NCBI GenBank assembly: GCA_052168235.1
Contig: JBQLZK010000117.1
Span: 1-11,354 of the forward strand
Length of the DNA stretch: 11,354 bases
DNA from: Thainema sp.
Lineage (GTDB): Bacteria > Cyanobacteriota > Cyanobacteriia > Phormidesmidales > Phormidesmidaceae
Reading direction: 5' to 3'
Below, one piece after another: positions 1 to 11,354 of this stretch; the first letter of the stretch is position 1; every line of letters starts with the position of its first letter. The position numbers and the translations under genes were made by a program. Under the pieces are notes generated by a model. The model had not been told where the DNA came from. It ran no database searches and saw nothing but the letters and a program-made list of their open reading frames with translations.

Positions 1-1206
1 TGGTTAGTCAAGAATTAATTGACGGGTAAAGTCGTTTCAACTTAATGCGTGCGTCCTCGGTGGTGAAGCGCCAATCAATCCACGTTTGCTGCTGATTGCG
101 GGTCTCTACCCAGGCTGAAACTTCACGTTGCAGGGGTTCAAATTCAGCGATGCGTCGGTCTAAACATTGACGAGCCAGAATACTCAACTCAATCTCGGCC
201 ATATTCAACCAACTGCCGTGCTTAGGGGTATAGCAAAATTCCAGGCGATTGAGAATGCGACGCGCCTCGGCCGGTTCAAAGGCTTTGTAGAGAGAGGCGG
301 GTGTATGGGTGTTGAGATTGTCTTGCACCACCGTGATTAGCAGGGCATCGGGATAATGCAGATCGACAACATCTTTGAGCAAATGAGCATAATCAACAGC
401 GGTGCGCTGTCGCGTCACCTCAACGTGTCGCCACCCCGCTATCGGTTCACATAGCATGAATAGATTGGCGGTGCCGTTGCGCTCATATCGAAAATCCTGT
501 CGCTGTGGCTGTCCCGGTTGTGCCGGCACTGGTGCGACGGTTTCTTTGACGAGCTGTTTCATCGCTTCGTCAAGGCAGATGATGGGGAAGTCAGGGTGAT
601 AGCGGCGCTGGTAAACTTCCAGCACGGATTCCATTTGGCAGACAAATTCGGCATTCTGTTCTGGCGGAATTACCCAGCAGTCTTGTTTCCAAGGCTGTAA
701 TTCGTTTTTTTCAGCGTTTGCCGAATGGTTTCATGACTCACGCTCTCAACATGGCCGAGTTGCACCATGTGACTTGCCAGCAAGCGCAATGTCCACCGCG
801 CCTGACCCGCCGGAGCCTCACTACAGACCAAGGCAATCAAATGGGCTTCTTGTTCGCCATTCAAGCAGCTTTGTTTGCGTCCACCCCCGGTGCGTCGCAC
901 TAATGATGCCTCCAGCCCGAACTCCACAAAGCGACGGCGGACGCGTTCGACCGTGCGAACCCCGACGTCGAGGGCCGTCGCAATCGCCTGATCTGACCAA
1001 CTGCCGTTGGGTTGATTGCAGTCGGCTTTGAGCAGAATGCGCGCACGGGTAATGTGATCCGCCGCGCGACGGCCCGTTGTCGCGAACTATCCTAAGTAAG
1101 TCCGTTCTTCAGCACTCAAATCCACGATGTATTTCTTGACCATGACCGAAAGTAAGAGGTGTTTTTCTTACTTTAGCTGGCCGTCATCTATTTGTTGACG
1201 CACCAG
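1..1206 (-). mobile_element. IS630-family insertion sequence (left edge at or just outside the window start)
   Basis: Imperfect TIRs: 1-25 TGGTTAGTCAAGAATTAATTGACGG vs reverse complement of 1181-1205 TGGTGCGTCAACAAATAGATGACGG (19/25). TA target dinucleotide at 1207-1208. Encloses an IS630 transposase. Confidence 0.9.
8..1143 (-). pseudogene. IS630 transposase (OrfA/OrfB joined by a -1 frameshift) with a premature stop in OrfA
   Basis: From ATG 1143 it reads MVKKYIVDLSAEERTYLG*FATTGRR...RARILLKAD...WTLRLLA...SHETIRQTLKK, with in-frame TAG at 1087-1089. The slippery A7C at 704-711 shifts to NELQPWKQDCWVIPP, then the DDE domain (CLDE, VQDNLNTH, YTPKHGSWLNMAEIE). Confidence 0.9.
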
Positions 1207-1344
1207 TAGGCAGTTAGAGAGTTTGAGCAGAGAGACGATGGTTGAACGCTTGAGCAGTAGGGGTTTTGAGCTTGTCTATATAGGGATTCAGGCTCAGTCC
1301 TCAGCATTTCAGGCTTAATTTAGTGATGTACCGCACTTGTCGAG

Positions 1345-2027
1345 GTGAGCTTGGTCATGGGTGGAGTTGCGATCGCAATTTATAAGGGCAGTGCCAAACT
1401 GTTCTTCAAACGGATGGCCCAAGCACTGGATATCCCGACTGAGAACGGCGAAGGGAAAGCGCTCAACGTTGACGATCAGAAAGATGAGCTGCTGGATAAT
1501 ATCGGCTCACACACACTGCTGATTTTGCCGGAGGCCAAGCGGCTTTCGGCATCAATTCGCTATTGGTTGGAAGATGCGATCGCAAATGGGTGTCGCGTCG
1601 TTATGTTTTCACCTGTGAACCTTGGCCGGGATATCTTTCTCAACCTGCTAGAGATTGAGCTGGAGCTGCCCAGTGATGCCGCAATTCGTCAGGTGATGGA
1701 GCAAGAGGCACAGCGACAAGGATTACAACTTTCCCGCGCAGAACTGGCCGAGTTGCAACCGCTGGCCGGACGCAACCCGATGTTGGCCAAAAGGTTGTCC
1801 GGCAGCGCAAGTTAGGCATCAAACACCAGAAGCCAGAACACACTCAATACATTGTGATCATGCCCGTCATCGTTGCCTGTCTGATGGCCTTTGGCATCGT
1901 GCGCTTTGTCGGCCTGGGTACGGATAACAGGTCACTGTATATCTTCGGCGGTGTAACGCTGGTGGCCGGAATGACGCTAAAACAGTTGGGTAGTGTCAGA
2001 GGCGCAAGGAAGCGGTTAGGGCAGTAA
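1345..2027 (+). pseudogene. 5'-truncated, frameshifted ATPase-like protein with C-terminal transmembrane segments
   Basis: ORF 1345-1815 has a degenerate Walker-B-like LLILPEAKRL and a lid-like LAGRNPMLA but no Walker A. The -1 frame after A4 at 1789-1792 continues KVVRQRKLG...YIVIMPVIVACLMAFGIVRFVGLG...LYIFGGVTLVAGM...RLGQ* to TAA 2025-2027. Family assignment is from recall. Confidence 0.65.
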
Positions 2028-2110
2028 AAGTTTTGCTCTCAAAATGAGGAAACTGCAAATTGTCCTTTGTAGATTAGAAGTACCACCATTTGCTTAGAAG
2101 GGGGTGCTCT

Positions 2111-2719
2111 ATGAGCAACAGCGAGAGTAAACCGTCTGAAGACCGTCCTTGGTTGAAAGGACTCATTTTCCCGATCCTGATTGCGCTGATTGCTGGAGGC
2201 ACCTCGCCCTGGTGGATTAAGTTATTCCCCGGTGGCAGCAATGCATCAACGAATCCACCCGGCACTGTAACAAATACAGATCGCTCTGTAATCATTGATG
2301 GGTCAGGAAACCAAGTGGACAATAGCGATCACTCGATTAATTTGGTTGGCGAAGGCAATCAGATCAACATTCAAAAAGAGTCAGAAGCCCGTTCTAGAGG
2401 GGAATTTGATATTCCTACTATTTCTGGAATGAGCTATCACGAGGCCCGTGCCAAGTTGGTTGATGAAGGATGGGTTCCTCAGACCCAGCGCCATTTCTAC
2501 GGAAATCAGCCTGACATGCAGTTTGGCAATGCCCCAACATTTTGGGATTTAGGATATTGGGAAATCGTAACTTGTTCGGGAAGTGCAGAAGCGTTCTGTC
2601 GGTTTGAGTTCGCTGACCCCAGCGGGCGGCTGGCTATTGAGACGGCTGGCATTGAAGATAAAAGTGCAGGAATGGAAGCCCAGGTGAATCGAGTCTTCTT
2701 TGTTGATGAGGAATTGTAG
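2111..2719 (+). CDS. Membrane-anchored hypothetical protein
   Basis: Likely ATG at 2111. Hydrophobic WLKGLIFPILIALIAGG segment, then an N/S/G-rich linker, then a globular C-terminal domain (MSYHEARAKLVDEGWVP...CSGSAEAFCRFEF) with a Cys pair. Confidence 0.75.
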   Translation: MSNSESKPSEDRPWLKGLIFPILIALIAGGTSPWWIKLFPGGSNASTNPPGTVTNTDRSVIIDGSGNQVDNSDHSINLVGEGNQINIQKESEARSRGEFDIPTISGMSYHEARAKLVDEGWVPQTQRHFYGNQPDMQFGNAPTFWDLGYWEIVTCSGSAEAFCRFEFADPSGRLAIETAGIEDKSAGMEAQVNRVFFVDEEL

Positions 2720-2761
2720 TAGTTTTCGCCAATTCAAGTTTCTGAATCTCACCTGAGAACA

Positions 2762-2813
2762 CGACTCAGACTTCTCATCTAACCCTTAAGCCAACTTCAG
2801 ATCCGACTCAGAG
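2762..2813 (+). promoter_or_regulatory. Putative tandem direct-repeat operator upstream of the repeat-protein gene
   Basis: YTYA-core heptamers at 2774, 2785, 2796 and 2807 (exact 11-bp period). CGACTCAGA occurs at both 2762-2770 and 2804-2812. Confidence 0.4.
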
Positions 2814-2893
2814 CAGGTTCAGGCTGGCCCTCCACTATAGGAATCAACAAAGGAAAGCAAACCACTTGATTCCGCCTAAGGAGGCCCCCACTC

Positions 2894-3313
2894 ATGAAAT
2901 CTCTATTCGCTAATCTTTCCATCCTCGCTATTGCTGCTGCTGTTGTTGCTCCCGCAGCCGGTGCCGCTGAACTGACTCCCCAAACCAAACTCAATGAGCG
3001 CTTTGAGCAAGAACGCATCGAAACTCTCAACCAGCTTACCGACCGTTTTGAAGAGTCCCGCGATCAAGTTCTCAACAAAGGTCTAAACGATCGCTTCAAA
3101 GATGAACGCATTCAAACCCTCAACAGCTTGACGGATCGTTTTGATGAGTCTCGTGACGAAGTACTCAACAAGGGCTTGAATGACCGTTTCAAGCAAGAGC
3201 GAATCCAAACCCTCAATAGTCTGTCGGATCGCTTCGAGCAAGAGCGGATTGAAACGCTGAATCAGCTAACAGATCGCTTTGACGATGCTCGTGATCAGAA
3301 CTTAGACAGCTAA
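2894..3313 (+). CDS. Secreted protein made of seven charged 15/16-aa helical repeats
   Basis: AGGAGG RBS at ~2879-2884. Sec-type signal peptide MKSLFANLSILAIAAAVVAPAAGA. Mature part is L-x-[DE]-RF-x3-R-x3-L[ND] repeated seven times. A hairpin follows the stop. Confidence 0.85.
   Translation: MKSLFANLSILAIAAAVVAPAAGAAELTPQTKLNERFEQERIETLNQLTDRFEESRDQVLNKGLNDRFKDERIQTLNSLTDRFDESRDEVLNKGLNDRFKQERIQTLNSLSDRFEQERIETLNQLTDRFDDARDQNLDS
2990..3310 (+). repeat. Coding tandem repeat, seven 45/48-bp units
   Basis: LNERFEQERIETLNQ / LTDRFEESRDQVLNKG / LNDRFKDERIQTLNS / LTDRFDESRDEVLNKG / LNDRFKQERIQTLNS / LSDRFEQERIETLNQ / LTDRFDDARDQNLDS. Confidence 0.9.
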
Positions 3314-3348
3314 TCCTTTCCTTTTCTCATCCATCCCGCTCCACTACT

Positions 3349-3378
3349 TCCCCCAGGTTCACGCTTGGGGGATTTGTT
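3349..3378 (+). terminator. Hairpin, probable intrinsic terminator of the repeat-protein gene
   Basis: TCCCCCAGG-ttcacg-CTTGGGGGA followed by TTTGTT. Confidence 0.6.
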
Positions 3379-3420
3379 CACCGATAAAGCTTGGAATCAG
3401 CTTGCTTTCCGTGATTCCAT

Positions 3421-3457
3421 CCCTCCTGCATTCACCTGTGGGAGGGTTCTTGCTTTT
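3421..3457 (+). terminator. Second GC-rich hairpin with T-rich tail
   Basis: CCCTCCTGCA-ttcacc-TGTGGGAGGG (with G-U pairs) followed by TTCTTGCTTTT. Confidence 0.55.
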
Positions 3458-3504
3458 AGCCGCTGAACGGGCATTCTGATTGGAAGACTTTCCCTTGAAT
3501 GCCC

Positions 3505-3632
3505 ATGATGGCTATCACCCACGCCGCGATCGCATCGGCTGGCGTTGCGCCCAACAACCCCCAGCACCAACCGAACTTACACCAGCGCCGCACAGTAAAG
3601 CGAGCGAACCGGTTGAATCTGCGATCGCTCTT
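3505..3632 (+). pseudogene. Collapsed gene remnant (membrane metal-dependent-hydrolase-like N-terminus plus a piece related to the fragment at 10994-11264)
   Basis: MMAITHAAIASAGV resembles the start of YdjM-like membrane hydrolases (recall). 3615-3632 is 17/18 identical to 11190-11207 and both encode ESAIAL. Confidence 0.4.
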
Positions 3633-4010
3633 CAATTCATTGGCACAATCACTTCGAAACACACCAGCTTCATTACTTCACATAGACAAGAATGAAAAGA
3701 TAAGATAAGATAGCACGCTCTCGTTCCAAAATTTGGGGGCATTCGGTTAACTCGACTATCTCGCAAGCTCAAGAATTACCGCCCTACCCTACCACTCAGC
3801 CCCATCACTCAAGCAATACAACCTTTACCCTCATACTTGGAGCTATAACTCCACCCCTATCTCAGCAGCAGATAAAAACGCAAACGCAGACGAATTAAAG
3901 CAAAGAGAACGGAAGAAGTCTGAAGAGATTCAAAGACTCATGTGCTCGGCAGCAGCCATACGCCCAAATACTGGAGAGTAGGGAGCAACGTTTTATCGAT
4001 CCGCTACACC

Positions 4011-4364
4011 ATGCGTTTAGAAGACCGACATCCCTCAAACTGCGATCTTGACCTGCTCAATCCAACAGACATCATTGAACACATGATTGACCTACGCCTA
4101 CAAATGGCTCAGCTGGAGCAGCAAGTGAAAGAGTTACAGCCAGCTTTCTTCGCCGCCTGTCTCACCTTCAATCGGGAGAGCATCGAACTCAAACGAGCCA
4201 CAATCAAACGCCGTCTCACACCTGGCAAATGGAGTTATGACCCCGAAATCACCGAGCACGAACACTTAGTCAAAGCTCTCAAGCGACAGTTCCAAAACGA
4301 CCATGACCCCGTCAGTGGTCGAGAGCTCATTTGGATCGTCAAGCTTCTTCTGGCTCAGACGTAG
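4011..4364 (+). CDS. Hypothetical 117-aa protein with coiled-coil segments, convergent with tniQ
   Basis: ATG at 4011 and protein-like composition with heptads (MIDLRLQMAQLEQQVKEL). Its 3' end overlaps the tniQ 3' end by 26 bp. Confidence 0.7.
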   Translation: MRLEDRHPSNCDLDLLNPTDIIEHMIDLRLQMAQLEQQVKELQPAFFAACLTFNRESIELKRATIKRRLTPGKWSYDPEITEHEHLVKALKRQFQNDHDPVSGRELIWIVKLLLAQT

Positions 4365-4893
4365 CTCCCATCTGTTCAAACGGTAACCAACAGCGTTCGC
4401 AACGACCAAGCGCCCACAAGCTGGGAAGTCGTAAGGCGGTTTGACAGGCTGGGCATTGAGTCAGAAAAGGCGCGTGGTGGCTCGGACAATCAACTAAATC
4501 AGCCCGTTGCCAACACCGACGATGAATCGGTTCCGCTCGATAGCACGCCGCACACAGACGGGTCGTGGGAGAAAGTGACCCGTTTGGCGGGAACAACAAC
4601 GGCGTCAGCTGTTGAGACGTCAGCTGCATCAGGTGGGCCAGTTGATCTAGTTGCGCTTCTGTTGGCTGACACCGTCGGGAAGGCGTTTCCCATGCCGTCA
4701 TTAACGCGCGATCACACGCCGTCTTAATCGCGACCGAAGATGAGCGATCGCAAGCCGATTCAGAAAGTAGTTCGCCCAGGGTCTGCCGACTGAGTTGATT
4801 GGCACGCCGGAAACGCCCCAAAAAGTGCGAGAAACTTTCATCCCGACAGGGCTCTACACGAAATATCCAAGGACGCAAGGGCGGACACCTCAT
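4339..4893 (-). CDS. tniQ: TniQ, short type V-K CAST-like form
   Basis: PWIFRVEPCRDESFSHFLGRFRRANQLS matches the V-K TniQ N-terminus. Zn-binding motifs RLCAACY...H...C..H, CPAC and CERC. Start overlaps the tnsC stop (ATGA). Confidence 0.93.
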   Translation of the reverse strand: MRCPPLRPWIFRVEPCRDESFSHFLGRFRRANQLSRQTLGELLSESACDRSSSVAIKTACDRALMTAWETPSRRCQPTEAQLDQLAHLMQLTSQQLTPLLFPPNGSLSPTTRLCAACYRAEPIHRRCWQRADLVDCPSHHAPFLTQCPACQTALRLPSLWALGRCERCWLPFEQMGATSEPEEA

Positions 4894-5681
4894 CGATACT
4901 CAGAGGCCACTTCTTCCAGGATGGTCTTCGAGATCCGGTTTTTTCCACGCTCCAGTGACGTAATCGCGGCGGTTCTTAAAACCATATCCAGCAAGCCAAT
5001 ATATCCCTGAGTTGTTGTGTTCAAAATCCGTTGCATCGGGACACTTGTGAGTTGTGACGGTTCTGGTAGTTGCAAGACGTGCTTCTCCCAAAGTCCCGTC
5101 GTGACTTTAAGCTGCTGGCTATTCAGCCGTTGCACCCGATGGCATGCCATAAATCGGTTATAGATTTGTTCGTCACGGCGCACTACCGCATCTAATCGGT
5201 CGGTGCCGACTAGGACGACCGCAATTTCTAGTTTGTCAAACACGTCTTGGATATCGGAAAACGTTTTCGGTCTTAGGCGATGGGCTTCATCAACAATCAA
5301 CAGCTCGACCTGGCAAGCCCTTAAGACCTGATACACCCGGCGGCGCACTTCGGATAGGGTGCCTCGGCTGAGCTGATATTGCAAGGCATCAAGTACCCCC
5401 TCAAAAAAGTCTCTGGGGCCGCTCTCTTGCGGGGCATGCCAATATAGAACCGGGACGATGGGTGGCTCGCCTGAACGCTCTTGGGCTGGATGATTCCATG
5501 CATAGGCCGTACAGGCAACCGATTTGCCCGTGCGAGAATCGCCCACCACCCGGCAAGCCTGTCGCGCCAACCGTTTACTATCCAACCAGCGGTGGAATGT
5601 CTCCATCGGCTCCACGGATACCACACACCGTTTTTGCAGTCGGGCAATCGCGGTGATGGCAAAGTCGTCATCGCTCATCAT
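4890..5681 (-). CDS. tnsC: TnsC (TniB-family AAA+ ATPase)
   Basis: Walker A GDSRTGKS, Walker B LLIVDEAH, plus IAVVLVGTDRLDAVVRRDEQ, GYIGLLD and C-terminal LEEVASEY as in V-K TnsC. ATG at 5681 follows GGAGG and overlaps the tnsB stop. Confidence 0.95.
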   Translation of the reverse strand: MMSDDDFAITAIARLQKRCVVSVEPMETFHRWLDSKRLARQACRVVGDSRTGKSVACTAYAWNHPAQERSGEPPIVPVLYWHAPQESGPRDFFEGVLDALQYQLSRGTLSEVRRRVYQVLRACQVELLIVDEAHRLRPKTFSDIQDVFDKLEIAVVLVGTDRLDAVVRRDEQIYNRFMACHRVQRLNSQQLKVTTGLWEKHVLQLPEPSQLTSVPMQRILNTTTQGYIGLLDMVLRTAAITSLERGKNRISKTILEEVASEYR

Positions 5682-7099
5682 CGACCCAACCTCCAATAAC
5701 CAGGGGCATCTTCGTAATATCGGACTTCAACATCCGGAACATCGTCATACGCGATCTCATCCTCATCCTCCTCTTCAATGTCCGTATTGACTTGGGACTT
5801 AGACGTAGATACAGGCTCGACTTCCGGTAAAACTAGTTGAGCCGAAGGCACAGGTACAGGCGGTTGAGCCGGAATCAATCCTTGAGAGGCTTGGCCATCG
5901 CGCCAGCGCACTTCCTCTAGAATGGCTTGATTGGTAATGAGACGGCCTTGGCGACGGAGGCGACGACTAATGGCTTTGGCTTCGGCCACCGACAGGCTCT
6001 CTGTCTCTAAGTCTTGGGCATGGGCACGAGCCAGAAAGAGATCTTTCCCATTCTCGTATTGGTACACCCAGATGGTCGTGATGTCTTGGGGGTTATAGCG
6101 AATCACCACTTTCTCTCCGGCATAACCCGCCAGGTGCTCGCCGCGATAGGTCACGTTCTGAAACTGTAGGTACCCCCCGCGATAGACGGTACGAGATTCT
6201 CGGCGCATTAAACAAATATCGAGTTCGCGTTCACTCAGCAGCGGCAGTTGAGCGAGGCAACCCGCTTGCCAGCGTTCGATACGACTTTGGTCACCCATGC
6301 GCGCATCCAGATTGCGATTGTAGCGATCTACGATGTAGCGCACCAAGATGCGTTCTAACGCCGTCAGGGTCAAGCTGGCAGTCGTCTCGGCGGCTTTGGA
6401 ACGCGATTGGGTGTTGCTGCCGGTATAGCCGGGTAAGGCCGAGAACACTTCACTATTGAAGGTGCCAAACGGGCGTTCCACAATACCACCGTCAGACGGG
6501 CGGCGGCGATGGCACAGCACAATCCCCAGTTCGTTCGCCACTTGTTCAATATGCAAGGAGTGGAATTCTTTGCCGTTATCGGTGTAGAGGTAAGCTGGAA
6601 TGCCGTAGGTGTCCCAACTATGGCTCAGTTCGTAGCCACTGCTGTAGCGTTTTGGCAGGATGGCGTGACGTAACGCTAGACACACGAGCACCGCACTCGG
6701 CGGCTCCATCCCCAAATGCAGACCCATGATGCAGCGTGAATAGCTATCGACTACGGTCGTCAGCCACGGGCGGCCCAATATTTCGCCGCTTTGATCCACC
6801 ACCAACACATCCACCTTCGTGTGATCCACTTGCCACACTTGGTTACTATGCTCAACGTCGATCTCTAACCCGCTACGCGTCTTGATCTGTAAGCGCGAAC
6901 CTCGCCATCCCACACTCCCAATCTGTTCCCGGCGACGCTTCTTTTCGAGCTCTGGGCGTAGCAATCGGTAGACGCTCATCCGGCCTGGATGGCTCTCTAA
7001 GCCCTGCTCAGAGGCCCGAGCACGTACCCGCAAGTACACTTGGGCCGGACTCAATCGTCGCCCGTCTCGATTTCCCTCTCGCCACGTCTCCACGATGTA
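5678..7099 (-). pseudogene. tnsB: TnsB DDE transposase, C-terminal 473 codons (gene interrupted)
   Basis: WQVDHT, RPWLTTVVDSYSRCIMG, LYTDNGKEF and GGIVERPFGT catalytic motifs. Mu-like C-terminal domain (YRGEHLAGYAGEKVVIRYNPQDITTI) and an acidic tail. Confidence 0.95.
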
Positions 7100-7138
7100 G
7101 GGGTACTGCAAGCGTAGCTGCAACGAAGTGCCATAAGC
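7100..7138 (+). repeat. Left terminal inverted repeat of the Tn3-family element
   Basis: GGGGTACTGCAAGCGTAGCTGCAACGAAGTGCCATAAGC. Confidence 0.96.
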
Positions 7139-7278
7139 CCAAAACGGCTGAGATATATAGGCTTCAGCCATCGATTTTTGCCGCTATAGCAACCCATCAA
7201 ACGCTTAAGGGATAAGTTTTGTTTATACCATCCTGCGTTATTTTACGCTCACTAGAGACGTGATTCTAGAGGCGTAAG

Positions 7279-10229
7279 ATGAAACGGACGTGGGAAAATC
7301 ATGAACTGGTTGAGCACTGGACAATCGATGAGGCAGATCAGCAACTGATTCGTCAGAAGCGTGGCATTAATCGCTTGGGCTTCGCGCTGCTGCTGAAGTT
7401 CTTTCAGTTGAAGGGGCGATTTCCTGAGAAGAAGAACGAGATACCGAGAGTGGTTCGTACTTTTGTCTCAGAGCAGCTGTCAGTGGATGAAAGAGACTAC
7501 GAGCAATATGACTGGCAGGGGCGAGGAATTAAGCGCCACCGGGTCGAAATCCGTAAGCTGTATGGCTTTCATCGGATGCGGATAAATGAGTTCGATAGCC
7601 TGCGTCAGTGGCTGATTGACGAGATTGTGCCACTGGCCGTTGATGAAAGACGACTCCAAGCAGTGCTCTACGAAGAGCTGAGAACCCGCAAGATTGAGCC
7701 GCCGAGCTATGCACAAATCGAGCGGCTGATTAATTCAGCTCACCATCAGTTTGAGAGCCAACTGTGCGATTCGATAGTTGAACAGCTGCCAGCTAAGTGT
7801 CGTCAGGCTTTGGATAGCCTGACCGGCCCGCAGTCAGATTCCTGGATTCTGGATGCCGATGAGATTCCGCTCAATCAGCTTAAACAGGAGGCAGGTGGTG
7901 TCGGCTTGAAGAGCCTGAAAGCAGAGCTATCCAAGCTCAAAACAATCGAGCAATTGGCGCTAGCCACAGACCGATTCAAGGGCCTGAATGAGCGCTTAGT
8001 GGATCGCTATCGGCAGCGGGTCGAAACCGAGTCACTCACAGAGATTCGGCGGCACCCTGACCCGATTCGCTACCTGTTGCTGTCGGCGTTCTGTTATCAG
8101 CGCTCGCAGGAGATCGTCGATAGCATCATTGAGTTGTTCATTCTGCTCGTGCATCGGCTGGAAAGCCGCAGCCGCAGGCGGGTCTCCTCCGAGATTGTCG
8201 CCACTGCCCAGGAGACTAAGGGGCATGATCAACTGCTGTACCACATTGCCGTTGCGGCGCTCGCACAGCCAGAGGGCACAGTGCAAGAGGTCATCTATCC
8301 AGTGGCAAACAAAACTCAGCTAGAGACGGTCGTCGAGACCTTAAGTGAGGGCGGTAAAGGCTTCAACGAACGGCTCCACACCAAGATGCGTCGTTCCTAT
8401 ACGCACTACTATCGCCGCCTGCTACCGTTAATTCTCAATGCCTTAGAGTTTCGCTCTGATAGCCTGAACTTGAAGCCGTTGCTGGCGGCTATCCAGCTGC
8501 TGAAAGCCTCCGCTGAACTGCCCAGCACTGAGCCTTACGCAGCCGAGACAGCCGTGCCGATGGATGGAGTGCTCAGCCCTGAATGGCAGGATGCGGTGAT
8601 GGTCATCGGCAGCAGGGAGAACCCGAGATTGACCGGGCCAGCTATGAGCTAGGTGTGTTGCGCACCGTGCGCGAAAAGCTGCGCTGTAAGGAGCTGTGGG
8701 TCGTCAGTGCTAAGCGCTATCGCAATCCCGATGATGACCTGCCCCAAGACTTTGAAGTGAAGCGAGAGCAGTACTATCAAGACCTTCAGCAACCGCTAGA
8801 GGCGAAGTCTTTTATTGAGCAGCTCCAGGGGGAAATGACAGAGGCACTCACTAAGTTTAATCAAGGTCTGCCTGACAATCCCAAGGTGAAGATTTTCAAT
8901 AATCGGGGTGGTTGGATTCACCTGACGCCGGTTGCCAAGCAGCCGGAGCCAGAACACTTAAAGGCATTGAAGCAAGAGATCACTCACCGCTGGTCAATGG
9001 TGCCATTGCTCGATGTGTTGAAAGAGACGGAAATGCGGCTTCAGTTTACTGAGCACTTTAAGAGTACAGGTAACCGAGAAACGCTTGCCCCGGACGAGTT
9101 GCGCAAACGGTTGTTGCTTTGTCTCTACGCGGCGGGCACTAATCTTGGCCTTCAGCGGATTGCTCACGGTGAGCATGGAGTCAGCACTCCTGACCTGCGT
9201 TATGTCCAGCGCAAGTTTGTCTCAAAAGCAGCTCTCTCTTTGGCGATTGGCGATGTGGCGAACGCTATCTTTCGTGTGCGGCTACCCCATATTTGGGGTG
9301 AGGCCACCACCGCCTGCGCCTCTGACTCGAAGCAGTTTGGTACCTAGGATCAGAATCTGATGACCGAGTGGCACGCCCGCTACAAAGGACGCGGGGTCAT
9401 GATCTACTGGCACGTCGAGAAGAATGCCGTCTGTATCCATTCGCAGCTCAAGCGCTGCTCTTCTTCTGAAGTGGCTTCGATGATTAAGGGCGTGCTTCGG
9501 CACTGCACCCAAATGTCGGTCGATAAAAACTATGTTGATACGCACGGCCAAAGTGAGGTCGGTTTTGCTTTTGCTCACCTGCTCGGTTTTCAGCTGATGC
9601 CCCGGATTAGAACCATTCAAAAGCAGACGCTCTATCTGCCAGAGAAAGGACAGAACCAGCAGTTTGAAAACTTGACGTCAATTATCAAGCGCCCGATTCG
9701 CTGGCAGCTAATTCGAGCCCAATATGATGCGATGATCAAGTTTGCCACTGCCCTCAAGCAGGGCACTGCTGACCCTGAAGTCATCCTCGCTCGCTTTACG
9801 CGCAACAACGCCAAGCATCCGGTTTATCTCGCTTTGGCTGAGCTAGGCAGGGCGGTGAAAACGATCTTTCTGTGTCATTACCTGCACGATGAGCGGGTCA
9901 GGCAAGAGATTCAGGAGGGCTTGAATGTCGTCGAGAATTGGAATAGTGCCAACGACTTCATCTTCTATGCCAAGAATGGTGACTTTACCGCTGCTCGGGT
10001 CGTTCTACAGGAGATCTCGATGCTGTGTCTACACCTGCTTCAGATCAGTTTGGTCTACATCAACACGCTGCTGATTCAGCAGGTGCTGTCTGACCCGGTT
10101 TGGATGCAGAAGATGGGGCCGGATGAGCTACGGGCGTTGACGCCGCTCATCTATGCTCACGTCAATCCCTATGGCATTTTTCGTCTGGACATGGCTGAGC
10201 GACTGCTGATTGAAGTGTTGGCTAGTTGA
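7279..10229 (+). pseudogene. tnpA: Tn3-family transposase TnpA with one frameshift and one nonsense codon
   Basis: DUF4158-like N-terminus (NRLGFALLLKFFQLKGRFP). Frameshift near 8600-8615 leads into EIDRASYELGVL...WVVSAKRY. TAG at 9345-9347 in [15 protein letters not shown] (likely W). Catalytic ASDS, VDTHGQS and LNVVENWN. About 983 aa if repaired. Confidence 0.95.
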
Positions 10230-10340
10230 TGCCTTAACTTTTTGCGATCGCTGATTCAATAGGTCAAAAGCTGTCTTTATAAATATAATGAAAACTTATG
10301 AAATTGCCCCTGATTTTCGATATTTTAGGGGCAGCGCTTC

Positions 10341-10379
10341 GCTTATGGCACTTCGTTGCAGCTACGCTTGCAGCACCCC
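10341..10379 (-). repeat. Right terminal inverted repeat of the Tn3-family element
   Basis: Reverse complement GGGGTGCTGCAAGCGTAGCTGCAACGAAGTGCCATAAGC, 38/39 identical to the left TIR. Confidence 0.96.
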
Positions 10380-10666
10380 ATGTAGCGTCGCCACTCTGCA
10401 CTGAGTTGCGATCGACCCTTATCGCTGCGCTCTTGTCGCACCACTCCAGCTAGCCCGTCCCGACGCCAGCGCTGCATCAGACGTTGCACACTCCTCACGC
10501 TGATGCCCAATCGCCTCGCCGCTCGCTTTTGCGCTTGACGATAATCTCCCTGCCCTTGGTGGCGCAGCAGCTCTTGAATCTCGCTTACCCGTCGCCGATC
10601 TCGCTCCGACAACTCCTCCACTATCAGCAGCGAGCACCCTGCTATCTTTGACGCCTTCTCCTCCAT
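10380..10666 (-). pseudogene. tnsB: TnsB N-terminal HTH part (gene interrupted)
   Basis: HTH AARRLGISVRSVQRLMQRWRRDGLAG...RSDKG. Joins in frame across the TSD to the C-terminal part (EWRRY|IVETWREGNR). Likely ATG at 10666. Confidence 0.93.
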
Positions 10667-10741
10667 CGCCTTCTCTCCCAACTCCTTCCATCAGTCAATC
10701 ACTTGCGCCGCTTTACTTGGTGCTTTATTTACTGAAATTTA

Positions 10742-10992
10742 CGTCAATTATGGCGATACTTTTAGGGCACATTTTTGATGGAATTGATACAATCCTTGAC
10801 TAGAAAGCCTTCTATCAATATTCCTAAACGTCATATAAATTGATACTTTTATAACTTTATTTGCGTCACTTTATTTGATACGCCATAGTCACTCTACATA
10901 AATCACTGTATCTCCCTCACAGTAATCGTTTTAGCCCTCTTACTACATGCCGCTTATCTCGGTATCAATGTCACTTAATTTGGTACGCGACA
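10742..10992 (-). repeat. Left end of the Tn7-like transposon with TnsB-binding repeats
   Basis: Minus strand begins TGTCGC at 10992. 18-bp sites: GTACCAAATTAAGTGACA (10969-10986), GTATCAAATAAAGTGACG (10864-10881), GTATCAATTTATATGACG (10829-10846) and GTATCGCCATAATTGACG (10742-10759). Confidence 0.85.
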
Positions 10993-10993
10993 G

Positions 10994-11264
10994 CTGCAGA
11001 TTGAATCGAGCGACAGTCCCAAACGTCTCACAGTGCAGGTTTCAGTCGCTGATCCAGAAGACTTGACAGTGAAGATGGGTGATCGTGTGGAAGCTGGCCA
11101 GCTAATTGCTGATCGCTCACGAGAACGGCAGCGGCTAGAGGCGCAACAGCAGCAGCTTTCCTTGGGCTCAGGCTACTGTCGAACAGGCGGAATCTGCGAT
11201 CGCACTTAAGCAGCAGGAAATTGCTTACCTTACTCAACTGTCGTCAATCACAACAATTAGATAA
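10994..11264 (+). pseudogene. Startless fragment of a HlyD/biotin-lipoyl-like coiled-coil protein gene (probable insertion target)
   Basis: LQIESSDSPKRLTVQVSVADPEDLTVKMGDRVEAGQLIADRSRERQRLEAQQQQLSL contains the V-x-x-GD-x-V-x-x-GQ half-lipoyl motif. After a frame change near 11165 it reads AQATVEQAESAIALKQQEIAYLTQL. Begins exactly at the transposon end. Confidence 0.7.
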
Positions 11265-11302
11265 CGGTGAAAGGTGCGATCGCAACTCCCAACTTCCCAA
11301 CT

Positions 11303-11328
11303 AAAAAGCCCGATCCGAAGACCAGGCT
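11303..11328 (-). terminator. Intrinsic terminator of a minus-strand transcript entering from the right of the window
   Basis: Minus strand AGCCTGGTC-TTCG-GATCGGGCT-TTTT: a cUUCGg tetraloop hairpin with a U-tract. Confidence 0.8.
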
Positions 11329-11354
11329 AGGAGGAGAGTAGAGGGAGCGCAGTA

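Follow-up and report, generated by a model that had tools for sequence, protein, structure and literature searches.

A probable PAST-type Tn7-like element of an early-branching subclade, disabled by a Tn3-family insertion in tnsB, on a Thainema contig

Contig JBQLZK010000117.1 of the cyanobacterium Thainema sp. (11,354 nucleotides, analysed in full and referred to here as the window) carries a Tn7-like transposition module of tnsB, tnsC and tniQ adjacent to a single transposon end; the window is the entire contig, and the far boundary of the element lies outside it. Based on the phylogenies of the core proteins, a conserved small gene following tniQ and the distribution of Cas12k and protelomerase genes among related loci, we consider it very probable that this element is a member of the PAST lineage, which comprises protelomerase-associated Tn7-like elements of cyanobacteria devoid of TnsA and Cas12k, the nearest relatives of the type V-K CRISPR-associated transposons (CASTs). 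The lineage has already been described under this name and is not newly found here. The window holds a PAST-type copy from an early-branching subclade, disabled by the insertion of a Tn3-family element in tnsB.

PAST was described by Hsieh, Fulop, Schargel, Petassi, Barabas and Peters (bioRxiv 10.1101/2024.11.13.623437), and PMC12669027 lists a journal version among its references as Science 387, eadp1973 (2025). The preprint reports 27 Tn7-like elements without TnsA and Cas12k that form one clade adjoining the V-K CASTs in TnsB, TnsC and TniQ trees, lie near contig ends and exhibit a single identifiable end. According to the same source, all of them carry a small open reading frame (ORF) termed TnsP after the operon and 15 of the 27 carry the protelomerase gene telT, so that a missing protelomerase in the window is not disqualifying. 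For the element LoPAST, the preprint describes experiments in which TnsP was needed for transposition and bound double-stranded DNA without sequence preference, the telomere was resolved by TelT, two ends were enough for movement, and insertions clustered near the telomeres of a linearised E. coli chromosome; TnsP was predicted as a ring-shaped dimer. It also mentions a second Cas12k-less cyanobacterial group possessing TnsB and TnsC only (CP000117.1 type). The earlier account by Hsieh and Peters (2022, PMC9881144) describes the TnsA-less clade as 'predominated' by V-K CASTs and, where it touches on this point, says no more.

Read along the minus strand from the single end, the window contains tnsB, tnsC and tniQ in this order, both gene junctions being ATGA stop/start overlaps, followed by a small convergent gene. 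The features of the module are listed below in order of their coordinates.

4011..4364, plus strand: tnsP-like gene of 117 aa, convergent with tniQ, the 3' ends overlapping by 26 bp
4339..4893, minus strand: tniQ of the short type (184 aa), encoding zinc-ribbon cysteines, the motif WETPSRR and an insertion of ~15 aa; assigned by its ShCAST TniQ match and its position in the tree
4890..5681, minus strand: tnsC, AAA+ regulator of 263 aa with the Walker B motif VDEAHRL; assigned by TniB Pfam and ShCAST TnsC matches
5678..7099, minus strand: tnsB, 3' part, encoding the DDE core, the Mu-transposase C-terminal domain and the tail; matches to rve, Mu-transpos_C and ShCAST TnsB
7100..10379, plus strand: Tn3-family element of 3,280 bp with only a transposase gene, bounded by 39-bp inverted repeats starting with GGGG and flanked by an ATGTA duplication
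10385..10681, minus strand: tnsB, 5' part, encoding the N-terminal helix-turn-helix (HTH) domains; matches to HTH_29, HTH_23 and HTH_28 and to the TnsB N-terminus in 60 loci
10682..10992, minus strand: single, tnsB-proximal transposon end with the terminus 5'-TGTCGC at 10992, then a 17-mer

Domain and structure database searches yielded a consistent picture for the three core proteins. TnsC matched the Pfam family TniB (PF05621, E 1.9e-33), TnsB matched rve and Mu-transpos_C, and TniQ matched its own family (PF06527) at E 3.3e-4, under the gathering score. Compared with the sequences in the PDB, TnsC aligned end to end with ShCAST TnsC (E 1.9e-86; the next family, VchTnsC, at E 1.3e-4), the TnsB 3' part with ShCAST TnsB (E 2.2e-156; query residues 1–464 on chain residues 114–577) and TniQ with ShCAST TniQ (E 1.7e-31), the last alignment opening a 16-residue gap on the ShCAST side, which corresponds to an insertion in the window protein. 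These full-length homologies place the proteins in the V-K/PAST superfamily, not in Tn5053 or Tn7 proper. No tnsA-like ORF was present among the window ORFs (ORF list, Pfam and NCBIfam), and resolvase, TnsA and Cas protein domains were absent from all window ORFs of at least 100 aa (Pfam and NCBIfam). The coupled tnsB, tnsC and short 184-aa tniQ without tnsA that the first-pass annotation had read from the letters alone were thereby corroborated by the ATGA overlaps and the Pfam and ShCAST matches. Its view that the proteins are divergent from ShCAST held only in part: TnsB and TnsC are close full-length homologues, but the motif differences it had pointed out, DEAH and WE.PSRR, do mark a clade.

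Species-representative genomes were scanned with a TnsC alignment, and the best 80 of 221 relatives were retained as loci for comparison. Of 1,868 candidates from a TnsC database search, 502 proteins passed E<=1e-10. The closest TnsC relatives (84, 81, 78, 76, 72, 71 and 66% identity) lie on short metagenomic contigs, and the closest among the best 80 loci, L001 and L002, exhibit a TnsC identity of 70–71% on contigs of 2.7 and 2.3 kb. Clustering of the large non-Tns ORFs of the 80 loci yielded two informative families, one of which was identified as Cas12k (NF038191, E down to 2.5e-289, 3 of 3 proteins tested) and the other as a protelomerase with the ResT/TelK catalytic domain (PF16684, E 1e-31 to 8e-45, 3 of 3 proteins tested). 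Applied to the locus ORFs, hidden Markov models (HMMs) of the two families each matched in 15 loci, Cas12k exclusively among L035–L079 and the protelomerase exclusively among L003–L027, and none of the 80 loci carried both. All named relatives are cyanobacterial; the metagenome-assembled genomes labelled 'Enterobacteriaceae' (L021) and 'Rhizobium' (L048) are probably binning errors.

Phylogenetic analysis separated these loci along the same line. The TnsC tree (78 rows) is divided into a set of 31 rows, which includes the window, and a set of 47 rows, with a support of 100 in the Shimodaira–Hasegawa-like approximate likelihood ratio test (SH-aLRT). Within the 31-row set 27 rows have a protelomerase or the small gene and four have neither, whereas the 47-row set contains 15 rows with Cas12k and 32 with none of the three, protelomerase and small gene being found in none. 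We refer to the two sets as the protelomerase side and the Cas12k side, a label that reflects the co-occurrence of protelomerase and small gene and not the sequences of the PAST paper itself. Likewise, the window fell into the corresponding sets of 27 rows in the TniQ tree (69 rows), 19 rows in the tree of the TnsB 3' part (61 rows) and 28 rows in the tree of the concatenate (75 rows, 1,017 columns), each with an SH-aLRT of 100. Excluded were L017 as a duplicate of L016 throughout, L043 from the concatenate owing to its very long TnsB branch, and ORFs under the length cut-offs. The first-pass annotation had proposed TnsB and TnsC trees together with a count of cas12k co-occurrence. In this comparison, Cas12k was present in none of the 31 protelomerase-side loci and in 15 of 49 on the other side; the protelomerase showed the reverse distribution (15 of 31 versus 0 of 49). 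The Walker B motif follows the same division, reading DE[A/S]H in 31 of 31 protelomerase-side rows versus DEAD in 47 of 47 Cas12k-side rows, and this position is mixed in the outgroup TnsC representatives described below (D, H, Q, N and others). W-E-x-P-S varies little or not at all in the TniQ alignment of the protelomerase side. The window, L001 and L002 group together at the base of this side with a support of 98 to 100, and the insertion of ~15 aa in TniQ is common to the window and L002 only.

The small gene at 4011–4364 provides a further line of evidence. A phmmer search with its protein matched ORFs located directly after tniQ and on the opposite strand in related loci (E 1e-33 to 4e-40). 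An HMM built from a 20-row alignment of these proteins (A2) matched in 25 of the 31 protelomerase-side loci, but in none of the 49 Cas12k-side loci even at E<=1, indicating that this ORF is a conserved partner gene and not filler. Among the six protelomerase-side loci without it, the contigs of L001, L024 and L028 stop before the position, L029 is also without tniQ, and the remaining two, L016 and L017, are one palindromic contig. The alignment contains 14 invariant columns, all of which are retained in the window protein. A wider database search yielded 14 homologues, none with a functional name. The AlphaFold model of the protein is all-helical, with a long helix comprising residues 18–69 and two shorter helices (mean predicted local distance difference test score of 74). 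Complex predictions of TniQ with two copies of the TnsP-like protein scored 0.56, 0.01 and 0.00 in separate runs and count neither for nor against binding. Based on its position, size class and lineage, we infer that this gene corresponds to the published TnsP. The sister lineage with another target selector that the first-pass annotation had preferred over a CAST is therefore supported by the SH-aLRT 100 split in all four trees, by the distribution of the small gene and by the DEAH motif in 31 of 31 rows.

We next summarize the searches for CAST and telomere components within the window. For Cas12k, the lowest E was 0.46 when 11 such proteins of related loci served as tblastn queries, and 1.3 when the HMM was run on six frames. 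Repeated weak tblastn hits at 3574–3954 (E 0.8 to 9), considered as a candidate Cas12k remnant, were rejected, as the HMM gave nothing better than E 1.3, and are treated as chance matches in an A-rich stretch. Repeat searches detected no CRISPR-like tandem array in the window, and there were no tRNA genes and no Rfam match at E<=1. Rfam gave no sign of a tracrRNA, and the window shares no similar DNA with Cas12k-bearing loci beyond its tns genes, no dedicated tracrRNA model having been built. The claim that the 4.3 kb downstream of the module are empty of such components was thus partly upheld: no Cas12k, array or resolvase was found, yet the stretch is not free of element genes, containing the conserved tnsP-like ORF. 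Searching the window for a protelomerase gene or remnant by HMM and tblastn likewise gave nothing significant; the best HMM hit (E 0.069) is a repeat protein at 2870–3310, probably matched via its coiled-coil composition.

Several observations weigh against PAST membership. In the approximately unbiased (AU) test on TnsC, holding the window with the 47 Cas12k-side rows was not rejected (difference in log-likelihood 14.7, p 0.116), and with the concatenate, holding the window's subclade with the Cas12k side was not rejected either (difference 1.49, p 0.445). The AU tests thus contribute nothing beyond the branch supports. The latter result arises from the basal position of the subclade on its side, which makes its affiliation dependent on the root, and for this reason we added outgroup TnsC representatives (24 full-length sequences of 28–51% identity, from an exhaustive search yielding 988 proteins at E<=0.001). 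The outgroup-rooted tree united the window's subclade and the other 28 rows in one clade with an SH-aLRT of 87, which stays below 95 in a tree with many long branches. Furthermore, 32 of the 47 Cas12k-side rows lack Cas12k within 10 kb, rendering its absence from a window weak evidence by itself; where present, Cas12k lies 1.2 to 8.4 kb after tniQ. Neither a protelomerase gene nor a remnant was detected by HMM and tblastn in the 3.9 kb beyond tnsP, where the contig stops inside a copy of the insertion sequence (IS) family IS630 without a terminal inverted repeat, so that a telomeric position is not visible. Finally, the small gene is equated with TnsP by position, size class and lineage, LoPAST lying outside the 80 loci; a PDB fold search with the monomer model gave no match at E<=0.001 and no GapR-like hit.

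An alternative reading is a separate early-branching, TnsP-bearing lineage consisting of the window, L001, L002 and the short metagenomic contigs, neither telomeric nor linked to a protelomerase, which could be two-ended with ordinary cargo and use TniQ and TnsP for another choice of target. The group of its own at the base of the protelomerase side, the basal branching order left unsettled by the AU test on the concatenate, the TniQ insertion confined to the window and L002, the plus-strand ORFs beyond tnsP and the lack of a protelomerase, both in the 3.9 kb and in any member of the subclade, all fit such a lineage. We nevertheless regard it as improbable, as the window contains no second end, 12 of the 27 published PASTs are also without telT according to the preprint (bioRxiv 10.1101/2024.11.13.623437), and the contigs of the subclade, only 2.7 and 2.3 kb for L001 and L002, are too short to tell. 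It is similarly unlikely that the window, L001, L002 and the metagenomic relatives (66–92% identity, contigs <10 kb) represent a distinct TnsP-bearing lineage branching early at the base of the PAST/V-K split, with its own TniQ insertion and no link to a protelomerase; if so, this basal lineage could be non-telomeric and two-ended, and stand closer than the PASTs known so far to the ancestral element in which the short TniQ came to pair with either Cas12k or TnsP.

An ordinary type V-K CAST in decay, with cas12k, tracrRNA, array and right end beyond the contig or deleted, appears very unlikely. The core proteins are indeed near those of ShCAST, V-K cargo can put many kilobases between tniQ and cas12k, as the 32 rows mentioned above illustrate, and the TnsC-only AU test is not decisive. 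However, the window lies across an SH-aLRT 100 branch in four trees, such that its TnsC does not nest among the Cas12k-associated homologues, the placement named beforehand as speaking for an ordinary CAST; it has DEAH instead of DEAD; its tnsP-like gene occurs in none of the Cas12k-side loci and Cas12k in none on its own side; and the contig holds no tRNA gene, array or Cas12k remnant. A Tn5053/Tn402-type or a minimal TnsBC-only cyanobacterial element (CP000117.1 type), both compatible with the missing tnsA and the TniB match of TnsC, is practically discounted by the lack of a resolvase domain in the window ORFs of at least 100 aa in the former case, by the presence of tniQ in the latter, and by ShCAST being by far the best structure match in both.

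Considering the element as a PAST, it shares with LoPAST of Leptolyngbya ohadii the tnsB-tnsC-tniQ arrangement without tnsA and cas12k, the conserved small gene after tniQ, the single TGT end, the position on the protelomerase side of all trees and a cyanobacterial host signature, the window containing eight copies of the HIP1 palindrome GCGATCGC versus ~0.2 expected. In contrast to PAST as described, the contig lacks telT, its tnsB is split, a telomeric location is not visible, and the element falls into an early-branching subclade with the TniQ insertion of ~15 aa; the window TnsC is only 59% identical to the TnsC-family protein of L. ohadii (P0053). With the type V-K CASTs (ShCAST; 7M99, 7SVW, 8EA3) the element has in common the TnsB, TnsC and short TniQ architecture, strong full-length homology, an end with TGT and repeated TnsB sites, and the lack of TnsA, for which a replicative (cointegrate-type) chemistry is expected. 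It differs from them in the absence of Cas12k, array and tRNA target or tracrRNA match, in having DEAH instead of DEAD, in the WE.PSRR motif and C-terminal tail of TniQ, in the presence of the TnsP-like gene and in its place on the other side of the tree. A more distant parallel is provided by the Tn6022-type elements with TnsF (Faure et al. 2023, PMC10293859), in which TniQ is reported to serve as adaptor to a target selector that is a DNA-binding protein of its own, attached non-covalently, an analogy drawn in the PAST paper itself (bioRxiv 10.1101/2024.11.13.623437). TnsF, however, is described as an inactivated tyrosine recombinase targeting comM (PMC10293859), whereas TnsP is small, helical and without sequence preference, and the core proteins of Tn6022 are unrelated to those of the window beyond the level of the Tn7 family.

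The disruption of tnsB escaped the first-pass annotation. The gene is split in two by the 3,280-bp Tn3-family element at 7100–10379, whose 39-bp inverted repeats (7100–7138 and 10341–10379) differ by one mismatch and which is flanked by a 5-bp duplication, ATGTA, at 7095–7099 and 10380–10384. The ORFs listed at 5678–7171 and 10343–10681 extend into these inverted repeats, and the extensions are spurious. Removing the insertion and one copy of the duplication in silico yielded an open frame of 567 aa, which aligned with the TnsB of L008 gap-free across the junction (62.6% over 486 aa), indicating that the insertion is the sole visible lesion. The Tn3-family transposase gene (7279–10229) is itself a pseudogene, with a frameshift near 8583–8652 and an in-frame TAG at 9345–9347. 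NCBIfam transpos_Tn3 matched in three ORFs (model positions 2–429, 431–669 and 678–953 of 954), and Pfam assigned DUF4158 and DDE_Tnp_Tn3. The window thus presents a decayed Tn3-family element nested within another inactivated element. Megablast against a plasmid collection gave as its only match 160 bp of the Tn3 transposase, in two Klebsiella plasmids.

With tnsB split, the window copy presumably can no longer move by itself, as judged from the sequence. The other three genes, tnsC, tniQ and the tnsP-like gene, look intact, which makes the Tn3-family insertion look recent. Before it, the copy would have transposed in the manner that the preprint reports for LoPAST. On this model, TnsB would bind the repeated sites in the single TGT end, TnsC would act as AAA+ adaptor, and TniQ would pair with TnsP in place of Cas12k and guide RNA. 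The other boundary of the element would be a hairpin telomere made by the TelT protelomerase, which many copies carry, and movement would occur when two ends meet, through a replicated telomere or through bridging by TelT, leading to insertions that pile up near telomeres.

The related loci were assessed for signs of such a telomeric position. Considering only loci whose contig extends 9.5 kb or more upstream of tnsC, a contig end follows 0.5–5.0 kb downstream in 13 of 14 protelomerase-side versus 5 of 27 Cas12k-side loci (Fisher p 5.7e-6), a bias that a telomeric position of the protelomerase-side elements predicts. The contig shared by L016 and L017 (Pelatocladus maniniholoensis JAHHHW010000042.1) is palindromic, with two mirrored copies of tnsB-tnsC-tniQ-protelomerase fragment around two inverted IS4 elements, an arrangement like that of the 'mirror image' contigs attributed in the PAST paper to replicated or read-through hairpin telomeres. 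In L003, L011, L014, L015, L018, L022 and L027, the chromosomal DNA immediately flanking the transposon end contains a protelomerase gene or a fragment of one, as expected if a newer telomeric element inserted beside an older one and replaced its telomere. Together, the contig-end bias, the mirror contig and the outside fragments are consistent with protelomerase-side elements residing at hairpin telomeres.

For annotation, a cyanobacterial contig with tnsB, tnsC and tniQ but no Cas12k does not necessarily carry an incomplete CAST. A convergent small gene after tniQ, a DEAH Walker B motif in TnsC and the WE.PSRR motif in TniQ mark the telomere-associated sister family and are useful markers for annotation as well as for CAST mining. 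With the window's element, the family first reported in 2024–2025 gains an early-branching member inactivated in nature, which by itself poses no new question.

The single transposon end, also proposed by the first-pass annotation, was confirmed by comparison. Besides the TGTCGC terminus at 10992, it contains three 17-mers resembling TnsB sites, GTAYCAAWTWWANTGAC, at 10970–10986, 10865–10881 and 10830–10846, all on the minus strand in a single orientation, and weaker copies of a GTATC type further into the end. Three such 17-mers in 11,354 bases compare with 0.46 expected and were reached in 1 of 200 shuffles. A terminus TGTCGA, directly followed by a related 17-mer, recurs upstream of tnsB in L005, L009 and L013 and supports the end call at 10992. 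Across the other loci, at least two upstream matches with <=3 mismatches were found in only 4 of 18 protelomerase-side loci; the sites have diverged, and only the comparison of termini was therefore retained. The search for a second end detected no GTAYCAAWTWWANTGAC 17-mers in the window outside 10830–10986.

In the outgroup-rooted tree, the full-length TnsC representatives P0136–P0145 (39–49% identity) branch between the protelomerase and Cas12k sides.

The remaining parts of the window, none of which is assigned a strand, are the following.

1..3313: DNA distal to tnsP, with plus-strand ORFs at 1345–1815, 2090–2719 and 2894–3313 and an IS630-family copy at ~1–1170; only possibly part of the element
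3314..4010: non-coding DNA preceding tnsP, corresponding in position to telT in protelomerase-carrying relatives
10993..11354: flanking host DNA; the 5 bp adjoining the end are GCTGC, which the first-pass annotation had predicted as target-site duplication, and a 5'-truncated, degraded gene fragment is present

Within the host DNA, the frame 10979–11206 exhibits a weak match to a barrel-sandwich hybrid (RnfC_N, E 1.9e-4). The fragment looks like the lipoyl-type domain of a membrane-fusion or HlyD-like protein, its 5' side cut by the insertion and its downstream part degraded.

Consensus scans of the stretch 3314–4010 revealed promoter-like hexamers at 3677–3711 and, behind the ORF that precedes the stretch, two hairpins resembling terminators. 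None of the 80 loci is similar to it in DNA sequence, and it showed no Cas12k or protelomerase remnant.

With the exception of the IS630 copy, the ORFs in 1–3313 have no homologues in the 80 loci. The IS630 copy at the left end of the contig lies on the minus strand, with the DDE part (8–634) and the HTH part (670–1086) in different frames, and is 68% identical to a copy in L008 (7019–7620); the contig probably broke at this repeat. The ORF at 1345–1815 (156 aa) exhibits Atlas features like those of AAA_22/TniB/MuB-type ATPases with a score of 0.88, taken as a lead only, and has no Pfam or NCBIfam match and no Walker A motif. A second TnsC-like gene was rejected for this ORF, based on the lack of a Pfam match and of similarity to the window TnsC; it could represent an ATPase gene that has lost its N-terminal part, beside the IS630 copy. 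The ORF at 2894–3313 encodes 139 aa with a hydrophobic, signal-peptide-like N-terminus and three repeats of 93 nt (31 aa) that are rich in R, D, E and L.

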